NCBI GenBank assembly: GCA_964390725.1
Contig: CAYMIW010000010.1
Span: 1,721-65,720, forward strand
Source: an uncultured Syntrophomonadaceae bacterium
GTDB taxonomy: Bacteria; Bacillota; Dethiobacteria; DTU022
Direction of reading: 5' to 3'
DNA: 64,000 bases
The first letter of the stretch is position 1, and each line of letters opens with the position of its first letter. The notes beneath the pieces were generated by a model. The model saw only the letters and a program-made list of their open reading frames with translations. It had not been told where the DNA came from and ran no database searches. The translations under genes were made by a program, and so were the position numbers. Positions 6,203 through 64,000 of this stretch are shown here, piece after piece.

Positions 6203-7543
6203 TTGGGAATATTATTTGGAACCGATGGAATCAGGGGTGTGGCTAATCGTGAATTAACCCCTGAGCTTGCTTTTAAAATTGCCAGAATTACCGCCTGGCT
6301 GCTGGGTCGAAATAACGAAAACCCGGTTTTTTTGATCGGAAAAGATACACGGCTTTCCGGGTCCATGCTGGAAAGCGCGCTGACAGCCGGCATAACCTCT
6401 GTAGGTGGTGAAGTGCATCTGCTTGGGATAACCTCAACCCCGTCTGTTGCCTTCCTGACCAGGCGGCTTTCTGCTGCGGCGGGCATAGTAGTTTCCGCTT
6501 CTCATAATCCTATAGAAGATAATGGATTAAAAATATTCGACAGCAGTGGTTATAAGCTTTCCGATGATGTTGAAAATGAAATTGAAGAGATTTATTACCG
6601 GGAGTTTGATCAACTTTCGCGTCCGGAAGGAGCTCTGGTTGGACAGGCAATTAATGACTCTGATGCCGTTCAACAGTATCTCCATTATTTGCATGATTTG
6701 TCTGCCCCCCTGGCCGGCTTAAAAGTAGTAGCCGATTGTGCCCATGGGGCCGTTTGCCGTATTGCCGGTGAGCTGCTGGTTAAACTTGGCGCCGAAGTGG
6801 TAATGCTGCACGATAGTCCGGATGGCACTAAAATTAATGTTAAATGTGGTGCTACCGATACGGAGGATTTGCAGAAAGCTGTTGCTGAAAGTGAAGCAGC
6901 GCTGGGTCTGGCTTTTGATGGAGATGCCGATCGGTTGATTGCCATTGATGAAAAGGGCAGCATTGTCGATGGAGACGCCGTGATGGCAATATGTGCCTTA
7001 AATATGTTGCAAAAGGGGACATTGAAAAACAATACCCTTGTAACAACTGTAATGAGTAACGGTGGTCTCGATATTCTTGCTGAAGACAACCAGATAACCA
7101 TTATCCGTACTGCGGTGGGAGACAGGTATGTTCTTGAGAAAATGCTGGAAGGCGGATTTAATCTTGGTGGAGAACAGTCTGGTCATATTATATTTTCCGA
7201 TCATGCTACCACGGGAGATGGCCTTTTAACTGCCATTGAACTTCTGAAAATAGTCCAGGAAAAGCAACGTCCACTTTCAGAACTTGCCTCGGTTTTAGAA
7301 AGGCTTCCACAGATACTTGTTAATCAAAAAGTGGGCAATAAAGAAGGTTGGTCTGAAAATACCAGGATCAAAGAAGCAATCAGAAAAGTAGAAGCAGCAC
7401 TCGGCAGGCACGGACGTATTCTTGTCCGTCCATCGGGAACAGAACCAAAAATTCGTGTTATGATTGAAGCGCCGTTAGCGCAGGACAAACTTGAAGAGTA
7501 TGCTTATTCCCTGGCGGATGTCATTGCCAGGGAGCAGGGCTGA
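6203..7543 (+). CDS. glmM: Phosphoglucosamine mutase
   Basis: FGTDGIRG, SASHNP, DGDADR, GGEQSGH, RPSGTEP. Confidence 0.97.
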   Translation: MGILFGTDGIRGVANRELTPELAFKIARITAWLLGRNNENPVFLIGKDTRLSGSMLESALTAGITSVGGEVHLLGITSTPSVAFLTRRLSAAAGIVVSASHNPIEDNGLKIFDSSGYKLSDDVENEIEEIYYREFDQLSRPEGALVGQAINDSDAVQQYLHYLHDLSAPLAGLKVVADCAHGAVCRIAGELLVKLGAEVVMLHDSPDGTKINVKCGATDTEDLQKAVAESEAALGLAFDGDADRLIAIDEKGSIVDGDAVMAICALNMLQKGTLKNNTLVTTVMSNGGLDILAEDNQITIIRTAVGDRYVLEKMLEGGFNLGGEQSGHIIFSDHATTGDGLLTAIELLKIVQEKQRPLSELASVLERLPQILVNQKVGNKEGWSENTRIKEAIRKVEAALGRHGRILVRPSGTEPKIRVMIEAPLAQDKLEEYAYSLADVIAREQG

Positions 7544-7619
7544 GTGAATATTATTAGATAAAGGGAATATCCGGTAAAACCCTGGCTGGATTATCCGATC
7601 ATTAACTGGGGGAATTGGC

Positions 7620-9455
7620 ATGTGTGGAATCGTTGGTTATACGGGAAGGAAAAGGGCTTCCTCAATTATTATAGATGGATTGAAAAAACTTGAATACCGC
7701 GGTTACGATTCAGCCGGGTTAGCCCTGCAGCAGGATGGCCTGCTTGCAGTAACCAAGGCTGCCGGGTCGGTTGCTTCCCTTGAGTCTAAACTTGATTCTT
7801 CCAGCGAAGCAACCGTGGGGATCGGTCATACCCGCTGGGCAACTCATGGCGGGCCATCTGATGAAAATGCTCACCCTCACAGTAGCTGCGGTGGGGAAAT
7901 AGCCCTGATTCACAATGGCATCATTGAGAACTACCAGGTCCTAAAAAATGAACTCATGAAAGATAACCGCCATGTTTTTAGTTCAGAAACTGATTCTGAA
8001 ATTCTTGTTCACCTGATCGAGGAATACTACAGCGGAGATCTGCTTGCTGCTGTAAATAAAGCGTTAAAAAGGGTAACAGGTTCCTATGGCCTGGTTGTGC
8101 TTTCATCTCGTGAGCCGGGGCGAATTGTCTGTGCCCGTCGCGACAACCCCCTCATTATCGGAATTGGTGAAGGAGAAAATATTGTCGCATCCGATATCCC
8201 GGCCCTTCTCTCCCATACACGTAAAACCCTCGTTATGGAAGATGGAGAAATCGCTTCGGTAACAGCAGATCGGGTTGAGCTTTTTGACAGCAGTGGCAAT
8301 CCCCTTGAACGGGAGTATTTTAACATAACCTGGGATATTGATGCTGCTGAAAAAGGCGGGTTCGAACATTTTATGCTGAAGGAAATTATGGAACAGCCTG
8401 CAGCAGTTAAGGAGACAATGCGGCAAAGAATCAACCCGGAGACAGGTAAAGTTGTTCTCGATGAACTTGGTGTTGATGTTAATGTGCTAAAAAATTTGAA
8501 AAAATTACATATTGTGGCTTGTGGTACTGCTTATCATGCCGGGCTTCTAGGTAAAAAAGTTATCGAGAAACTGGCTGGAATACCTGTAAATGTTGATGTC
8601 GCATCTGAGTTTCGCTATGGTGAACCGCTATTTGATAAAAATGAACTGGCAATTGTAATCAGCCAATCCGGTGAAACGGCCGATACATTGGCTGCATTAC
8701 GCCTGGCGCAGCGAGAAGGAGTAAAGGTTCTGGCAATTACCAACGTTGTTGGCAGTTCTGTTTCAAGGGAAGCTGACCATGTGTTTTATACCTGGGCAGG
8801 TCCCGAAGTAGCTGTTGCCTCCACCAAGGCTTATTTGACCCAGTTGATTGCCCTTTATCTTTTTGCCTTACTTTTGGGGGAAATACGTGGCACAATTGAC
8901 CAAGATACTTACCCGAAACTGGTTTCTGCCTTAAAAAACCTGCCGCAGCAGCTGCAGCAGGTACTGGCAGCAGATAATCTAAAAAGATTAAAAGATTATT
9001 GTCGGCATCTGGCCGGCTGGGATAGCGCTTTTTTTGTCGGCCGGGGTTTTGATTACCCGGTAGCCATGGAGGGAGCTCTTAAATTAAAAGAGATCTCTTA
9101 TATCCAGGCTGAGGCCTACGCGGCCGGAGAGCTAAAGCACGGCCCACTGGCCTTGATTGTTGAGGGAGTGCCGGTGATAGCCCTTGCTACCCAGGAAGCT
9201 ATTCTGGATAAGTTAATGAATAATATCCAGGTTGTAAAAGCTCGCGGTGGTAGAGTATTTGCAATAACCCAGGAAGGTTTTGAAGGGATAGAAGCACAGG
9301 TTGATGCAGCTCTCTATTTGCCTCGCACAGAAGATATCCTTGCTCCCGTGTTAAGTGCTGTGCCTACGCAGCTTATTGCCTATTATGCAGCAGTAGACCG
9401 CGGCAGCTCGGTTGATAAACCACGGAACCTGGCAAAAAGCGTTACCGTGGAATAA
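7620..9455 (+). CDS. glmS: Glutamine-fructose-6-phosphate transaminase
   Basis: MCGIVG, LEYRGYDSAG, GHTRWATHG, SQSGETADT, KPRNLAKSVTVE. Confidence 0.98.
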   Translation: MCGIVGYTGRKRASSIIIDGLKKLEYRGYDSAGLALQQDGLLAVTKAAGSVASLESKLDSSSEATVGIGHTRWATHGGPSDENAHPHSSCGGEIALIHNGIIENYQVLKNELMKDNRHVFSSETDSEILVHLIEEYYSGDLLAAVNKALKRVTGSYGLVVLSSREPGRIVCARRDNPLIIGIGEGENIVASDIPALLSHTRKTLVMEDGEIASVTADRVELFDSSGNPLEREYFNITWDIDAAEKGGFEHFMLKEIMEQPAAVKETMRQRINPETGKVVLDELGVDVNVLKNLKKLHIVACGTAYHAGLLGKKVIEKLAGIPVNVDVASEFRYGEPLFDKNELAIVISQSGETADTLAALRLAQREGVKVLAITNVVGSSVSREADHVFYTWAGPEVAVASTKAYLTQLIALYLFALLLGEIRGTIDQDTYPKLVSALKNLPQQLQQVLAADNLKRLKDYCRHLAGWDSAFFVGRGFDYPVAMEGALKLKEISYIQAEAYAAGELKHGPLALIVEGVPVIALATQEAILDKLMNNIQVVKARGGRVFAITQEGFEGIEAQVDAALYLPRTEDILAPVLSAVPTQLIAYYAAVDRGSSVDKPRNLAKSVTVE

Positions 9456-9466
9456 GGAGATTTTTT

Positions 9467-11173
9467 ATGACAGAGAAAAATGAAGCGGATTTAAAAACTA
9501 ATTTTATCTATACCATGATCAAGGAAGACATTGATCAAGGATTGCTGGAAGCAGCCCGGGTTCATACCCGCTTCCCGCCTGAGCCGAATGGTTACTTGCA
9601 TATTGGACATGCCAAGGCTGTGCTGTTAAATTATGGCATATCAAGAGATTTTAAAGGCAAATTCAACCTGCGCTTTGACGATACAAACCCAATCAAAGAA
9701 GAGCAGGAATTTGTCGATTCAATTATTGAAGATATTCGCTGGCTCGGAGCGGAGTGGGAGGACAGGCTCTTTTTTACCTCCGATTATTTTGAAGTGAAGT
9801 ACGAATTTGCCCAGCGGCTGATCAGGGCAGGCAGGGCTTACGTTTGCGATTTAAATCCTGAAGAAATCAGGAACTACAGGGGTACCCTCACCGAAGCTGG
9901 AACGGAAAGTCCTTACCGCAACCGTTCTGTTGATGAGAATATTGATCTTTTCGATAGAATGCGCCGCGGAGAATTTGAAAATGGTAGCAGGGTTCTCCGG
10001 GCAAAGATTGACATGACTTCCGGGAACCTAAATATGCGTGACCCTGTTCTTTATCGCATTCTTCATGCTGAACATCACCGCACCGGCGATAATTGGTGTA
10101 TTTATCCCATGTATGACTTTGATCACCCTTTTTCTGATGCCCTGGAAGGGATTACGCATTCTCTTTGTTCCATAGAATATAGCGATCATCGGCCGCTTTA
10201 TGACTGGATTGTCGATAATGCTCTCGAACTGATGCCCAAAGTAATCAAGTTCCGCTCAAGACAGACTGAATTTGCCCGTCTGAATATGACCTATACAGTT
10301 ATGAGCAAACGGAAATTAAGAAGACTGGTTGAAGAAAAGCATGTGGCAGGATGGGATGATCCACGCATGCCAACCATAGCCGGTTTACGGCGGCGTGGAG
10401 TTACTCCTGAAGCAATTGCCGACTTCCAGGACAAGGTGGGGGTTTCAAGATCTGACAGCACGGTAGACCTGGCGCTCCTGCAGCATTGTATCCGGCAGGA
10501 TCTTGAATCAAAAACCCCAAGGTTAATGGTAGTGTTGGACCCGATTAAGGTAAAAATTACTAACTGGCCTGAAGGCGAAATGGAAATGGTCGAGATGGAA
10601 AACATGCCGGGCAATGATAGCGCGGGAACTCGGATGGTGCCCTTTTCCGGTGAAATATTCATTGAACGGGACGACTTTATGGAAGAACCGCCGAAAAAAT
10701 TTTTCCGCCTTGCTCCCGGCAGGGAAGTGCGTCTTAAAGGAGCTTATATTATCTGTTGTGAAGAAGTGATTAAAGATGATGCCGGTAATCTTACCGAGTT
10801 GCGCTGTAGCTACGACCCCCGGACCAAAAGCAATGCGGATACCAGCGGCAAAAAGGTAAAAGGCGTTATCCACTGGGTATCAGAGAAACATGCTACCAGG
10901 ATTGACGTTAATCTTTATGATAACCTGTTTACTGTCGAGAATCCTGAGGAAGATGATGAAAAGGATTTTACAGATCATATCAACAAACAATCACTGGTCA
11001 CCTGTAAAAACGTTCCTGCTGAACCTGCTGTTGCCGATGCTGTTCCGGGAAACCGTTTCCAGTTTTTACGCAAGGGTTATTTTTATTATGATCCCCAGTC
11101 TTCCACTGAAATGAATCCGGTTTTTAACCGAATTGTTGCCCTGCGGGACAGTTGGGCCAGGATGAAGAAATAA
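9467..11173 (+). CDS. glnS: Glutaminyl-tRNA synthetase
   Basis: TRFPPEPNGYLHIGHAK, MSKRKL, RLAPGREVRLK, KVKGVIHWVS, FQFLRKGYF; no YqeY tail. Confidence 0.95.
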   Translation: MTEKNEADLKTNFIYTMIKEDIDQGLLEAARVHTRFPPEPNGYLHIGHAKAVLLNYGISRDFKGKFNLRFDDTNPIKEEQEFVDSIIEDIRWLGAEWEDRLFFTSDYFEVKYEFAQRLIRAGRAYVCDLNPEEIRNYRGTLTEAGTESPYRNRSVDENIDLFDRMRRGEFENGSRVLRAKIDMTSGNLNMRDPVLYRILHAEHHRTGDNWCIYPMYDFDHPFSDALEGITHSLCSIEYSDHRPLYDWIVDNALELMPKVIKFRSRQTEFARLNMTYTVMSKRKLRRLVEEKHVAGWDDPRMPTIAGLRRRGVTPEAIADFQDKVGVSRSDSTVDLALLQHCIRQDLESKTPRLMVVLDPIKVKITNWPEGEMEMVEMENMPGNDSAGTRMVPFSGEIFIERDDFMEEPPKKFFRLAPGREVRLKGAYIICCEEVIKDDAGNLTELRCSYDPRTKSNADTSGKKVKGVIHWVSEKHATRIDVNLYDNLFTVENPEEDDEKDFTDHINKQSLVTCKNVPAEPAVADAVPGNRFQFLRKGYFYYDPQSSTEMNPVFNRIVALRDSWARMKK

Positions 11174-60728: not shown

Positions 60729-62423
60729 TTAAAAATCATCCGGATCAACCATTACTTCAAGCAGGTAAGGTTTTTGGCTTTGCAGCGCTTTTTCAAGAGC
60801 CGGCGTAACAGCCTCGGGTTCGGTGATTTTTTCTGCCTCTACGCTGAAGCTGTTAGCCAGAGAGCAATAGTCGATACCGGAAATATCTGTACCGGGAAAG
60901 ATGTTTTTTTCAACAGCAACACCATTGTAGTGCAGGAGCCCCTTTCTTACGGCAGCATAACGCTGGTTGTTGATCACAACAAAAACAACAGGAATATTGT
61001 ATTTATATGCTGTCCATATACACTGCACTCCGAAAAGCAGCGTGCCGTCACCGGTAAAGCAGATTACTCTCTGCCCGGGGTCTCCGCATTTAACTCCCAG
61101 GGCGGCTCCGCTGCCCCAGCCCAGGCTGCCGCAGCTCTGGCCGTATAGACTCTTACTGTTTGGGCGCTTCAGGTATTCGACCAGATGATCATCGGATGTG
61201 GGAGTGTCGACAACAACAGTAGTATTTTCATCCATAACCTGCGATATGCTATCCACCAGGGAGGCAATCCTGATCGGTTTAGCAGCAGCAGCTTTCTTAA
61301 GCGCAGCTTCTATCTCTTCGGTCCGTTTAATATTCAGCAATTCTACAGTTTTATTCCTGGAGGCAACCAGGGTTTTCCTGCTCTCCAGCAGTGGAACCAG
61401 GGCTGCTTTAAGTTTTTTTACCGTTTCCAGGGTATTCCCGCAGAGTGGAACATCTGCCCTGTAAAGTTTATCTATTTCCTTCATGTCTTCATGCTGGTGA
61501 AGCAGTTTTGCCTTCCCGGGAATACCCGGGACTGCCGGCAGGGTAAACTCAGCGAAAAGTTTAGCCCCCAGGGCTAAAATCACATCGGCTTTTTCTGCTG
61601 CGGGGTGATCGGCTTTGTAGGGTCCCAGGAAACGCCGGTCGGTTGTCGGGTAGCAGTTGTGATAAAAACTCCACTTCGACTCACAGCATACCCCGGCCCC
61701 GAGCATATCGGCCAGTTCTTTAACCTCAAAGATACAGTTTTCCTTGCCGGCTCCTGAGCCGGAAATAATCAGGGGGAAACTGCTCTCAGCCAGGATACGG
61801 GCCGCCTGATCTATATCTTCATCGGCCGGCGCGCTTCTATAATTCACATTGCAGCGGGGGAAGGTATAAACACTTTTTTCACAAGCCGGTGCCTCAAGCA
61901 CATCCTGGGGTATAACCAGCAGGGTTGGTCCCTGGGGTGGTTTAATAGCCATTTGAAAAGCCCGGTTCAGGTCTTCAACAAGGTCCTCTGAGCGAAGCGA
62001 CTGCCAGTCCCACCTGGTGTATTGTTTAACCATTTCCTGCTCATGGGTAGTGGTGGTTATACCTCCGTGAGATAGGAGCCCCCGGGGTTTAATAACGTTA
62101 ATCACAACGATTGGCGAATGGCTCATTTTGGCGGAATAAATCTGGCTGATTCCGTTTGCCAGGCCTACGTTGGCATGCAGCATAACTACCTGTGGAGTGC
62201 CTGTTACCCGGGAGTGACCATCTGCTGCTGCAACTGCTGATCCTTCAAATGGGAAGAGAATAAACTCAAAATCATCTTCATCTGCACATGCGTCAATTAT
62301 CGACACCTCGGTTGTTCCGGGGCAACAATAAATTTGGTTAATATTTCTCTCTTTTAAAGTCTCAATGAACAAACTGCCGCCGTTGTTAAATTTTGTTGTT
62401 TTCATCTGGGCCTCCGTTAACAC
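60729..62423 (-). CDS. Thiamine diphosphate-dependent enzyme (benzoylformate decarboxylase-like)
   Basis: PGTTE, catalytic Glu in FEGSAVAAADG, GSLGWG, GDG..NN ThDP motif. Confidence 0.85.
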   Translation of the reverse strand: MLTEAQMKTTKFNNGGSLFIETLKERNINQIYCCPGTTEVSIIDACADEDDFEFILFPFEGSAVAAADGHSRVTGTPQVVMLHANVGLANGISQIYSAKMSHSPIVVINVIKPRGLLSHGGITTTTHEQEMVKQYTRWDWQSLRSEDLVEDLNRAFQMAIKPPQGPTLLVIPQDVLEAPACEKSVYTFPRCNVNYRSAPADEDIDQAARILAESSFPLIISGSGAGKENCIFEVKELADMLGAGVCCESKWSFYHNCYPTTDRRFLGPYKADHPAAEKADVILALGAKLFAEFTLPAVPGIPGKAKLLHQHEDMKEIDKLYRADVPLCGNTLETVKKLKAALVPLLESRKTLVASRNKTVELLNIKRTEEIEAALKKAAAAKPIRIASLVDSISQVMDENTTVVVDTPTSDDHLVEYLKRPNSKSLYGQSCGSLGWGSGAALGVKCGDPGQRVICFTGDGTLLFGVQCIWTAYKYNIPVVFVVINNQRYAAVRKGLLHYNGVAVEKNIFPGTDISGIDYCSLANSFSVEAEKITEPEAVTPALEKALQSQKPYLLEVMVDPDDF

Positions 62424-62556: not shown

Positions 62557-62585
62557 TTGACTTAACAGGCATGGGCAGATATAAT
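62557..62585 (+). promoter_or_regulatory. Sigma-A promoter driving the riboswitch leader
   Basis: TTGACT (62557-62562), 17 nt, TATAAT (62580-62585). Confidence 0.85.
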
Positions 62586-62590
62586 CATTT

Positions 62591-62672
62591 TTATCAGGAA
62601 AAGGCAAACCCATAGCAATATGGGGACGCAAAGCCATGGGTCCAACAGGAGGATCGCCAGGTTGCCCTTATA
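62591..62672 (+). ncRNA. c-di-GMP-I (GEMM) riboswitch aptamer
   Basis: GGCAAACCCATA-GCAA-TATGGGGACGCAAAGCCATGGGTCC..GGATCGCCAGGTTGCC: GNRA tetraloop, GGACGCAAAGCC core, P3 pairing, G20/C92 equivalents. Confidence 0.9.
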
Positions 62673-62693
62673 TAAAGAAACAGGGCAGGTTAC

Positions 62694-62721
62694 AGGCAGC
62701 CACCTCATGGTTGCCTTGTTT
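62694..62721 (+). terminator. Riboswitch expression-platform terminator
   Basis: AGGCAGCCA-CCTCA-TGGTTGCCT-TGTTT. Confidence 0.7.
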
Positions 62722-62835
62722 AGCTTTAGTGTAAGAAAGAAATGTTGAGGGGTGATGCTATAAAATAGGGGTAAAGAATTTAAGTGGGAGTTGTTTTGAT
62801 ATTATGATAAATATAATAAGAAGGAGTGTGTTTTA

Positions 62836-63108
62836 ATGAATAAATCAGAACTTATAGACAGTGTTGTTGAACAAACCGGAATGATGAAAAAAGATAGTGA
62901 AAAAGCAGTAAACGCCTTCATCGAATCTATTTCTGAAGCTTTGGCAAAAGGTGAAAAAGTGCAGCTAATCGGCTTTGGGACCTTTGACGTACGTAAAAGA
63001 AATGCAAGAGAAGGCCGTAACCCCAGTACAGGAGAAACCATTAAAATTGCCGCCCAGACAGTTCCCGTATTCAAGGCGGGTAAAGGGTTGAAGGATAAAA
63101 TCAAGTAA
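62836..63108 (+). CDS. hup: Histone-like DNA-binding protein HU
   Basis: MNKSELI..GEKVQLIGFGTF..R.AREGRNPSTGETIKI..PVFKAGKGLKD. Confidence 0.97.
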   Translation: MNKSELIDSVVEQTGMMKKDSEKAVNAFIESISEALAKGEKVQLIGFGTFDVRKRNAREGRNPSTGETIKIAAQTVPVFKAGKGLKDKIK

Positions 63109-63133: not shown

Positions 63134-63170
63134 AAGGGGTGACTGCAGTTGCTGCGGCCGCCCTTTTATT
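63134..63170 (+). terminator. Probable terminator after hup
   Basis: AAGGGGTGACTGCAG-TTG-CTGCGGCCGCCCTTTTATTTT with G-U pairs. Confidence 0.6.
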
Positions 63171-63270
63171 TTGAACTGTTATATCATAGTGCTTATTCAT
63201 GTTATAATGGTCTCCAAAATGTTTAGTGGCATCTCTCTGAACAAATAATTTGAGGGGAGACTATAAAACC

Positions 63271-64000
63271 ATGAACAGGATAGGCTTTAAAAAAAGTATT
63301 ACCCTCATATGGCTTTTTATGCTTATAGTTTTACTATTTAACCCTGCTTTTGCCGGCCCTGAGAATATTTCTGATCAGCATGCAGATCAGATCGATGCTC
63401 AGGCAGCCAACTCTTATCGTGCCGATCTTGCTATTACCGGACTGGTTAAAGGCAGTAGTGGAAGAAGAATAAATATAGACCTGACGGTGACAGAAATGGG
63501 TAGCTCTTCCCTGGGTTCGATCCTGGTATTGTTGCCGGATCTTAACGGGTCTGCAGGCTTTAGTAATTACCGGGTTAACAGCGGTGCTTCAGCAGCATCA
63601 TCGGGCAAACGCTGGGAAGCGATGATTGCTGAGCGTAACGGCAGTTATTACCTCAATATCAGGGCAAAAAGCGCTTCCGACTACCTGGTCATTAATGAAC
63701 AGGTAACAGTATCATTTTCTGCCAATGTGCCTGCATATGGTTATACAGGAGGCTACCAGTTTAAAACCAGGGCCTGGACTGATAATAGCTCGCGTGATGC
63801 CCTGCGCACCGATCCGGCAACCGGGCAGCCGGAAAATCTTAACATGATGGCCGCTGGTTTCAACGATCCGGTTATTCATGTAGAGCTTCCGGCTAAGACA
63901 GGTGTGAATAGTTACTATTACACAACTGATCGCGCAAAAGGTTTAACGGCAGAACTTTTTGCCGAAGGAAACGGTTTTGAAACCACCATTTTCAGCACAA
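63271..64000 (+). CDS. Secreted/cell-surface protein, 3' end beyond the window
   Basis: ATG 63271 after GAGGGGAG; MNRIGFKKSITLIWLFMLIVLLFNPAFA signal peptide; frame open to the window end. Confidence 0.75.
   Translation, partial: MNRIGFKKSITLIWLFMLIVLLFNPAFAGPENISDQHADQIDAQAANSYRADLAITGLVKGSSGRRINIDLTVTEMGSSSLGSILVLLPDLNGSAGFSNYRVNSGASAASSGKRWEAMIAERNGSYYLNIRAKSASDYLVINEQVTVSFSANVPAYGYTGGYQFKTRAWTDNSSRDALRTDPATGQPENLNMMAAGFNDPVIHVELPAKTGVNSYYYTTDRAKGLTAELFAEGNGFETTIFST

Follow-up and report, generated by a model that had tools for sequence, protein, structure and literature searches.

A c-di-GMP-I-type riboswitch precedes an HU-family gene in an uncultured Syntrophomonadaceae bacterium and its relatives

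We analyzed a stretch of 64,000 nucleotides (nt) from an uncultured Syntrophomonadaceae bacterium (GTDB lineage Bacteria; Bacillota; Dethiobacteria; DTU022), positions 1,721 to 65,720 of contig CAYMIW010000010.1 in assembly GCA_964390725.1. This whole stretch is called the window below. Near its 3' end lies hup, which encodes a protein of the HU family, preceded by a leader with a promoter, an aptamer of the cyclic di-GMP class I (c-di-GMP-I, or GEMM-I) type, an intrinsic terminator, and a spacer (Table 1). An annotation made from the sequence letters, here called the original prediction, had described this arrangement. We found that the arrangement recurs in relatives, and the element is almost certainly a real riboswitch of the c-di-GMP-I type.

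The riboswitch-hup unit and its recurrence

The promoter of the leader matches 11 of the 12 sigma-70 hexamer positions and was the top site in a two-hexamer pattern scan of a 2-kb region (cut-off, at least 9 of 12 positions). From the usual spacing, transcription is predicted to start at about 62591 to 62593, directly 5' of the aptamer. An Rfam cmscan of the full window against 4227 families, with the match repeated on a sub-region, gave RF03167 (c-di-GMP-I-GGC) as the best family for the aptamer (66.4 bits, E value of 1.7e-13 for the whole window; gathering score, 59 bits). A second family of clan CL00126 also reaches its gathering score at 62594 to 62670. The intrinsic terminator that follows (62694 to 62716) has a 9-bp stem, AGGCAGCCA-CCUCA-UGGUUGCCU, and then UUGUUUAGCUUU; its local fold has a free energy of -14.3 kcal/mol (z score, -3.2). 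The hup product matches Pfam Bac_DNA_binding (PF00216) over residues 1 to 90 with an E value of 3.8e-36, its closest solved chains are HU proteins (E values down to 2.9e-35), and R-N-P of the beta arm is kept (GRNPSTGE). Since hup has an intrinsic terminator of its own, the unit is monocistronic. We have thus confirmed the promoter (TTGACT, 17 nt, TATAAT), the complete GEMM-I aptamer (within a few bases of the limits first given), the terminator after it, and hup with its own probable terminator, as originally predicted. The divergent gene for a thiamine pyrophosphate (TPP) enzyme (60729 to 62423, minus strand) was considered as a target of the aptamer and was ruled out by strand and promoter geometry.

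We recovered the HU loci of relatives by exact-protein look-ups of a graded series of homologues from a protein search. The module of promoter, aptamer, terminator, and hup was present in nine distinct leaders that are closely related to one another (the window, L091, L094, L097, L100, L102, L103, L187, and L192; alignment A2), so the pairing of riboswitch and hup, for which a survey of relatives had been suggested, does recur. The HU proteins of these leaders are 73 to 100% identical to that of the window, the relatives standing at 91, 82, 81, 80, 74, and 73%; an exact look-up of the window HU itself showed that many metagenome assemblies contain this locus. The promoter is kept in all nine leaders, and the distance from the terminator to the ATG is about 120 nt in the window and 116 to 130 nt across the leaders. 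For HU and GlmS, the closest homologues that carry a name come from metagenome-assembled genomes (MAGs) labeled Dethiobacteria or Bacillota, and the sample names of the relatives, SL_1KL and SL_3KL sediment, presumably denote soda-lake sediments.

The module stands in at least four different gene neighborhoods. It is flanked by the TPP enzyme and a secreted protein of 630 amino acids in the lineage of the window, by an inositol phosphatase and an extracytoplasmic function (ECF) sigma factor in L094, by a SnoaL-like protein and either a GYF-domain protein or a two-component system in L097 and L100, and by an IS200-type transposase and AhpC in L102 and L187. Because the neighbors differ between lineages, what is conserved is the unit of promoter, riboswitch, and hup and not the neighborhood. 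Just 5' of the unit in the lineage with 73% identity lies a gene for a Y1 transposase of the IS200/IS605 type (L102, 1151 to 1957; L103, 1156 to 1962; L187, 853 to 1611; minus strand), which hints that the varied neighborhoods may owe something to mobile DNA. The 630-amino-acid protein encoded 3' of hup (window, 63271 to 64000 onward; L001, 3436 to 5328) has a signal-peptide-like N terminus and no Pfam match. The next gene after it (L001, 5535 onward) encodes a GAF-PAS-GGDEF-HD-GYP protein, so genes for c-di-GMP turnover adjoin the riboswitch unit. A PAS-GAF-GGDEF-HD gene lies about 3 kb from the unit in L094.

To compare these loci with other HU loci, we used a covariance model built here from the nine aptamers (R1). 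R1 scores 92 to 99 bits on the module, and on 167 other HU loci and the rest of the window it found nothing better than an E value of 0.2. Eight of these loci come from related MAGs and have no riboswitch; the other 159 are background loci from among the matches listed, in GTDB representative genomes and metagenome contigs. The background loci are a sample and no census: at 56 to 71% identity, almost only distant HUs are among the matches listed, and the window's own contig is not among them. In agreement with R1, a regular-expression screen, plus Rfam on 26 of the other HU loci, found no aptamer. It is very probable that the riboswitch controls hup by termination.

The spacer between terminator and hup is A+T-rich in the window. 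A purine-rich box (GAGGGGTG in the window, GGAGGTG in the L094 group; G runs) lies 86 to 98 nt 5' of the hup ATG and about 30 nt after the terminator in all nine leaders. A mini-open reading frame behind the box was rejected, as its start codon and spacing are inconsistent across the leaders, and RNAalifold found no conserved RNA structure in the spacer of the nine leaders. The box may be an mRNA stabilizer or a ribosome stand-by site, as it resembles a 5' stabilizer (STAB-SD) or such a stand-by site.

The spacer also raises the question of whether hup is transcribed mainly from a promoter of its own, with the riboswitch and terminator giving a separate short RNA or topping up expression. The -10-like hexamers that had suggested an independent promoter are present: an extended -10-like TGCTATAAA at 62757 to 62765 and TATAAT at 62812 to 62817. 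In some relatives, TATTAT stands a few bases 5' of the purine box, and the conserved spacer length and the box suggest a function for the spacer. However, neither hexamer passes the two-hexamer scan, which found no site in the window spacer at its cut-off, and the nine leaders share no promoter at a common position. The 91%-identical relative already lacks TGCTATAAA, and a transcript from the 62812 hexamer would start inside the ribosome-binding site. Moreover, the aptamer is found strictly together with this HU clade, its orientation and spacing unchanged within varied neighborhoods, and is absent at the 167 other HU loci. We consider transcription mainly from a spacer promoter unlikely.

Table 1. 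Features of the riboswitch-hup unit in the window (nucleotide positions of the window)
Feature	Position	Strand	Remarks
-35 hexamer TTGACT	62557-62562	+	Present in 9/9 leaders
-10 hexamer TATAAT	62580-62585	+	17-nt spacing from TTGACT
c-di-GMP-I-type aptamer	62594-62670	+	RF03167, 66.4 bits; R1, 94.3 bits
Minimal P1	AGG 62596-62598 with CCU 62666-62668	+	Weak or absent in 7/9 leaders
G20 equivalent, G	62603	+	Covariance-model position 10; invariant in 9/9
P1a, with GCAA tetraloop	62604-62629	+	Aptamer helix
A47 equivalent, A	62630	+	Covariance-model position 37; A in 9/9
P2	62632-62663	+	Aptamer helix
A strand GGUUGCC (3' base of P2, C92, first P1 base)	62660-62666	+	Complement of the T strand
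C92 equivalent, C, within the A strand	62665	+	Covariance-model position 75; invariant in 9/9
Linker	62671-62693	+	Sequence and length vary between relatives
T strand AGGCAGCCA (terminator 5' arm, switching strand)	62694-62702	+	Core GGCAGCC, 62695-62701
H strand UGGUUGCCU (terminator 3' arm, near-copy of the A strand)	62708-62716	+	GGUUGCC, 62709-62715
Imperfect U-rich tract UUGUUUAGCUU	62717-62727	+	Pattern scan
Purine-rich Shine-Dalgarno-like box GAGGGGTG	62748-62755	+	Kept in 9/9 leaders
hup ribosome-binding site GAAGGAG	62820-62826	+	9 nt 5' of the ATG; AAGGAG/AAGGGG in all leaders
hup, 90-amino-acid HU-family protein	62836-63108	+	Open reading frame, Pfam, tree; TGMMKKD signature
hup intrinsic terminator	~63134-63172	+	-20.3 kcal/mol, z score -3.57, then U run UUUUAUUUU

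Pairings of the expression platform and the direction of switching

The original prediction had called the direction of switching ambiguous by eye and had named one pairing for each direction. Both pairings exist, but they are not symmetric: the OFF pairing, between 62660 to 62666 and 62695 to 62701, is available in all nine leaders. The A strand and the terminator 3' arm (H strand) share GGUUGCC, and both pair with GGCAGCC of the T strand (62695 to 62701). All seven pairs of the A-T helix are possible in nine of nine leaders. The T-H terminator is 92.6% paired across them, with two pairs changed on both sides. The T core reads GGCAGCC in eight leaders and GGCAACC in L094, a G-to-A change that still pairs with both partners; the A strand carries a U-to-C change in L192, which also improves P2; and the H strand goes from GGUUGCC to GGCUGUC in the L102 group. 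Thus, all substitutions in the A, T, and H strands are compatible with both partners. T is almost invariant, and the adjacent linker diverges in sequence and in length (28 to 45 nt). By our own estimate, the chance of a 7-nt complement at that fixed place is about 0.002 to 0.006. The layout is that of the Cd1 riboswitch of Clostridioides difficile: the A strand and H compete for T, and a U tract follows.

We modeled folding with ViennaRNA, using the ligand-free ensemble before the 3' arm emerges and, as a mimic of the ligand-bound state, an ensemble with the base of P2 forced. In the ligand-free ensemble, the A-T antiterminator has a probability (P) of at least 0.93 in six of the nine leaders; in L100, T pairs instead, in a shifted register, with CUGCC, a neighboring stretch of the same P2 strand. 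In the mimic of the ligand-bound state, the terminator has a P of 0.76 to 1.0 in eight of nine leaders. States forced toward terminator or antiterminator lie within about 3 kcal/mol of each other in eight of nine (up to 4 with an alternative trim of the 5' end), a margin that a ligand could tip. Equilibrium modeling supports more termination in the ligand-bound mimic in eight of the nine leaders but not in the window.

From these pairings, we propose the following mechanism. At low c-di-GMP levels, the aptamer 3' strand GGUUGCC (62660 to 62666, with C92) would be free and would pair with GGCAGCC (62695 to 62701). This antiterminator would keep the 5' arm of the terminator from its 3' partner, and RNA polymerase would read through into hup. 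At high c-di-GMP levels, the ligand would clamp the base of P2 and C92, and the 5' arm would be left for UGGUUGCCU (62708 to 62716); the terminator would form and transcription would stop at about 62720 to 62727. The HU paralogue would most likely be made in the low-c-di-GMP state. The comparison of the nine leaders makes OFF the likely direction of switching. As an explanation of the whole locus, we favor, with moderate confidence, a monocistronic c-di-GMP-I unit that acts as a Cd1-type OFF switch over an accessory HU.

Several observations weigh against this explanation. In the window, the linker segment AGGGCAG (62682 to 62688) pairs with UUGCCCU (62662 to 62668) and beats T for the aptamer 3' strand. 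Because of this competition, the antiterminator has a P of about 0 in the window, where the terminator has a P of 0.90 to 0.98 both without and with the ligand mimic and the terminator state is favored by 5.5 kcal/mol. The window therefore folds to termination in both states, and the direction rests on the comparison with relatives and not on the thermodynamics of the window. The same linker hairpin is found in part in L091 and is absent in the other seven leaders. Furthermore, the support for the pairings is mostly invariance and one-sided changes, and shuffle controls for the pairings among these nine closely related leaders were not significant. With only 7 bp, the antiterminator has to close a loop of 28 to 45 nt. 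Finally, the window has an imperfect U tract and the L094 group a poor one; better tracts are found in L102, L187, and L192 (CUUUUCCAUUUUU).

We weighed the folding of the window against two further readings. If the riboswitch were an ON switch, the linker AGGGCAG would hold the aptamer 3' strand without ligand and the terminator would form; c-di-GMP would free the linker to capture H, and HU levels would rise. Without ligand, the window's leader is indeed predicted to form the linker-aptamer hairpin, the terminator then having a P of 0.9, and ACAGGGCAG can pair with UUGCCUUGU (62711 to 62719). However, the ON element put forward in the original prediction, AACAGGGCAG, did not hold up. Only the window has it in full and its closest relative in part (seven of the nine leaders lack the linker element), and the second hairpin that it builds with H ends at the same U tract, so that this hairpin would itself act like a terminator. 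In addition, the linker is not complementary to the T strand, the T-H terminator still has a P of 0.98 when the aptamer is forced, and the relatives show a classical antiterminator in the ligand-free state. An ON switch appears improbable.

The other reading is that the switch of the window has drifted to a mostly constitutive attenuator, in which the linker hairpin blocks antitermination and hup is weakly expressed at any c-di-GMP level. This would account for what the window alone shows in folding, with an antiterminator P of 0.00, a terminator P of 0.90 to 0.98 in both states, and the margin of 5.5 kcal/mol. Equilibrium folding, however, ignores cotranscriptional kinetics. The aptamer and the A, T, and H strands are intact and identical to those of functional-looking relatives, and many samples contain this sequence without any change. 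We judge such drift to be as improbable as an ON switch, and we retain the Cd1-type OFF switch as the working model.

Aptamer class and ligand

All nine aptamers score best on RF03167 and not on RF01051 (59.7 to 66.6 bits, all above the gathering score). A covariance-model check had been proposed; the element passes it at the gathering score, the best-scoring model being GGC and not the parent family RF01051. That the best model is an orphan variant also counts against our explanation of the locus. RF03167 reportedly is an orphan variant from the variant survey of Weinberg et al. in 2017, and none of the papers examined here that mention the family gives a ligand or gene context. The name GGC reportedly stands for the bases at positions 20, 47, and 92, and the RF03167 consensus, GACGCGAAg, fits, with a conserved G at the position of A47. 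The window has GACGCAAAG here, with A in nine of nine aptamers; thus, the G that defines RF03167 is missing from every leader.

The other features are those of the c-di-GMP-I class: the covariance-model score, two adjacent hairpins, a GNRA loop (GYAA in nine of nine), and the binding-site bases. With the numbering of the Vc2 riboswitch transferred through the covariance-model alignment (model position 10 as G20, 37 as A47, and 75 as C92), these bases are G, A, and C in all nine aptamers. In the established Vc2 structures, G20 contacts one guanine of c-di-GMP and C92 is the Watson-Crick partner of the second. The G noted earlier at the position-20 equivalent (62603) is confirmed and invariant, so the A at position 20 of cyclic GMP-AMP (cGAMP)-type aptamers (GEMM-Ib) is absent from all nine. 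The earlier preference for c-di-GMP over cGAMP stands on the G20/A47/C92 site, but the argument also needs the A at 62630, a base that the original prediction did not name. Since the A47 position holds A and not the G that the model conserves, the site is canonical and c-di-GMP is the expected ligand; on these bases, we regard c-di-GMP as the highly probable ligand. The preference for RF03167 probably reflects shared shape, namely, a short P1 and a similar P2.

The helices of the aptamer are conserved to different extents. P1a and P2 are 98 to 100% paired across the nine leaders, with one compensatory pair, and the P1 pairs of the covariance model are only 37% paired. Duplex folding gave a P1 of AGG/CCU plus UAU/AUA in the window (-3.0 kcal/mol), a weak P1 also in L091, and practically no P1 in the remaining seven leaders. 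L102 and L103, whose leaders are otherwise identical, differ by a 4-nt duplication of GTCC in the distal stem-loop of P2 (L102, about 2786 to 2795), which indicates that variation is tolerated at the tip of P2.

The fit to RF03167 and not RF01051, together with the unusual near absence of P1, could also mean that the aptamer senses another ligand, such as 3',3'-cGAMP or the ligand of the orphan GGC variants, but this is very doubtful given that A replaces the conserved G of RF03167 in nine of nine, that position 20 is G and not the cGAMP-type A, that C92 is kept, that another family of the clan also reaches its gathering score at this aptamer, and that GGDEF/HD-GYP genes near the unit show that c-di-GMP signaling exists in these organisms. 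A related idea, drawn from the better GGC-model fit and the lack of a real P1 in all nine, is that these aptamers form a transitional subfamily with altered ligand preference, the HU paralogue being the first functional clue to the targets of the orphan variant lineage, which would then put a change of nucleoid protein under second-messenger control in an uncultured class of Bacillota; this, too, we hold to be very improbable. For automated annotation, the result is a trap: clan competition in Rfam assigns aptamers with the canonical G20/A47/C92 site to the GGC variant, and the subfamily would be misfiled.

Two observations concern other parts of the window. A molybdenum/tungsten cofactor (Moco) riboswitch (RF01055, 58.9 bits) occupies positions 1 to 98 on the minus strand; it is cut by the window start, and the gene that it controls is outside the window. 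A cluster of glmM, glmS, and a glutamyl/glutaminyl-tRNA synthetase gene lies at 6203 to 11173, with glmS 76 nt after glmM. Many Bacillota carry a glmS ribozyme; the cmscan of the whole window found none at the Rfam threshold.

The probable HU paralogue and comparison with known systems

In a neighbor-joining tree, the riboswitch-linked HUs form one clade, with the signature TGMMKKD, apart from two other HU types. One of these, with 72 to 73% identity, is encoded in related MAGs at the locus murJ-mazG-hup-spoIID-yabP-yabQ, with about 100 nt upstream and no aptamer; the other is at a third locus type, LysR-hup-cupin, which is also riboswitch free. The mazG-hup locus is the classical position of the housekeeping HU gene in Bacillota. 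The separate clade and the riboswitch-free HUs at mazG-hup in related MAGs make it probable that the gene behind the riboswitch encodes an accessory HU paralogue, not the housekeeping nucleoid HU. One point weighs against this: among the loci examined, none showed a riboswitch-linked HU and a housekeeping HU in the same genome. Two candidates for such a pair were rejected. L137, from the same JGI sample and with mazG-hup-yabO synteny, has a tetranucleotide correlation of 0.70 with the window (rank 91 of 162), compared with 0.91 to 0.96 for the organism's own contigs, and so belongs to a different organism. P0036, considered as a second HU on the contig of P0012, is of the LysR-hup-cupin locus type and lies on other contigs.

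These data change how the biological proposal of the original prediction should be read. Its claim that c-di-GMP controls HU dosage stands insofar as the riboswitch precedes an HU gene, but, given the separate clade and the riboswitch-free HUs at mazG-hup, dosage is better described as a choice of HU paralogue. Its suggested link to the biofilm matrix, through extracellular DNA and DNABII proteins, predicts induction at high c-di-GMP levels, and the proposed OFF direction argues against it. If the switch works as we propose, an uncultured Bacillota clade of alkaline lakes swaps or removes an HU paralogue as c-di-GMP rises. The decision between motile and sessile life would then be tied directly to chromosome architecture at the RNA level, complementing known protein-level links such as the action of c-di-GMP on H-NS (PMC10657408).

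The c-di-GMP riboswitches are known mainly from positions before genes for motility, pili, adhesins, and signaling. A limited full-text literature search found none before a gene for HU or another nucleoid-associated protein. The riboswitch class is already known; the novelty lies in its target, a dedicated clade of HU paralogues, and in the near absence of P1. Compared with the housekeeping HU (hbs/hup, at the mazG-hup-yabO/spoIID locus), the riboswitch-linked proteins are of the same family and length, are about 70 to 73% identical, and keep R-N-P. They differ in forming the separate TGMMKKD clade, and the housekeeping loci of related MAGs differ in lacking a riboswitch and in having an upstream region of only about 100 nt.

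Among riboswitches, Vc2 of Vibrio cholerae shares with the element described here the two-hairpin aptamer, the GNRA tetraloop on the first hairpin, and G, A, and C at the contacts, but it has a longer P1 and another expression platform and comes from another phylum. The RF03167 variant is the best covariance model for all nine aptamers and has the same short P1 and P2 shape, but its model has G at the A47 position, where all nine have A and the site is canonical. The experimentally characterized Cd1 of C. difficile, upstream of the flgB flagellar operon, is a transcriptional OFF switch with a P-A-T-H layout, and its antiterminator is only transiently stable relative to its terminator (PMC9262584). 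Cd1 has the same aptamer class, the same A-T-H order, a T-H terminator, and an A-T antiterminator. In contrast, the genes downstream of Cd1 are flagellar, whereas here the gene encodes HU behind a 120-nt spacer with a purine box, and the switch described here is predicted from sequence and folding. Unlike Cd1, in which the A strand is a strand of P1, the element described here has almost no P1, and so its A strand is the base of P2 together with C92. It would thus be a compact natural example of switching by a c-di-GMP-I aptamer in which the base of P2 and C92 take the place of a P1 helix.

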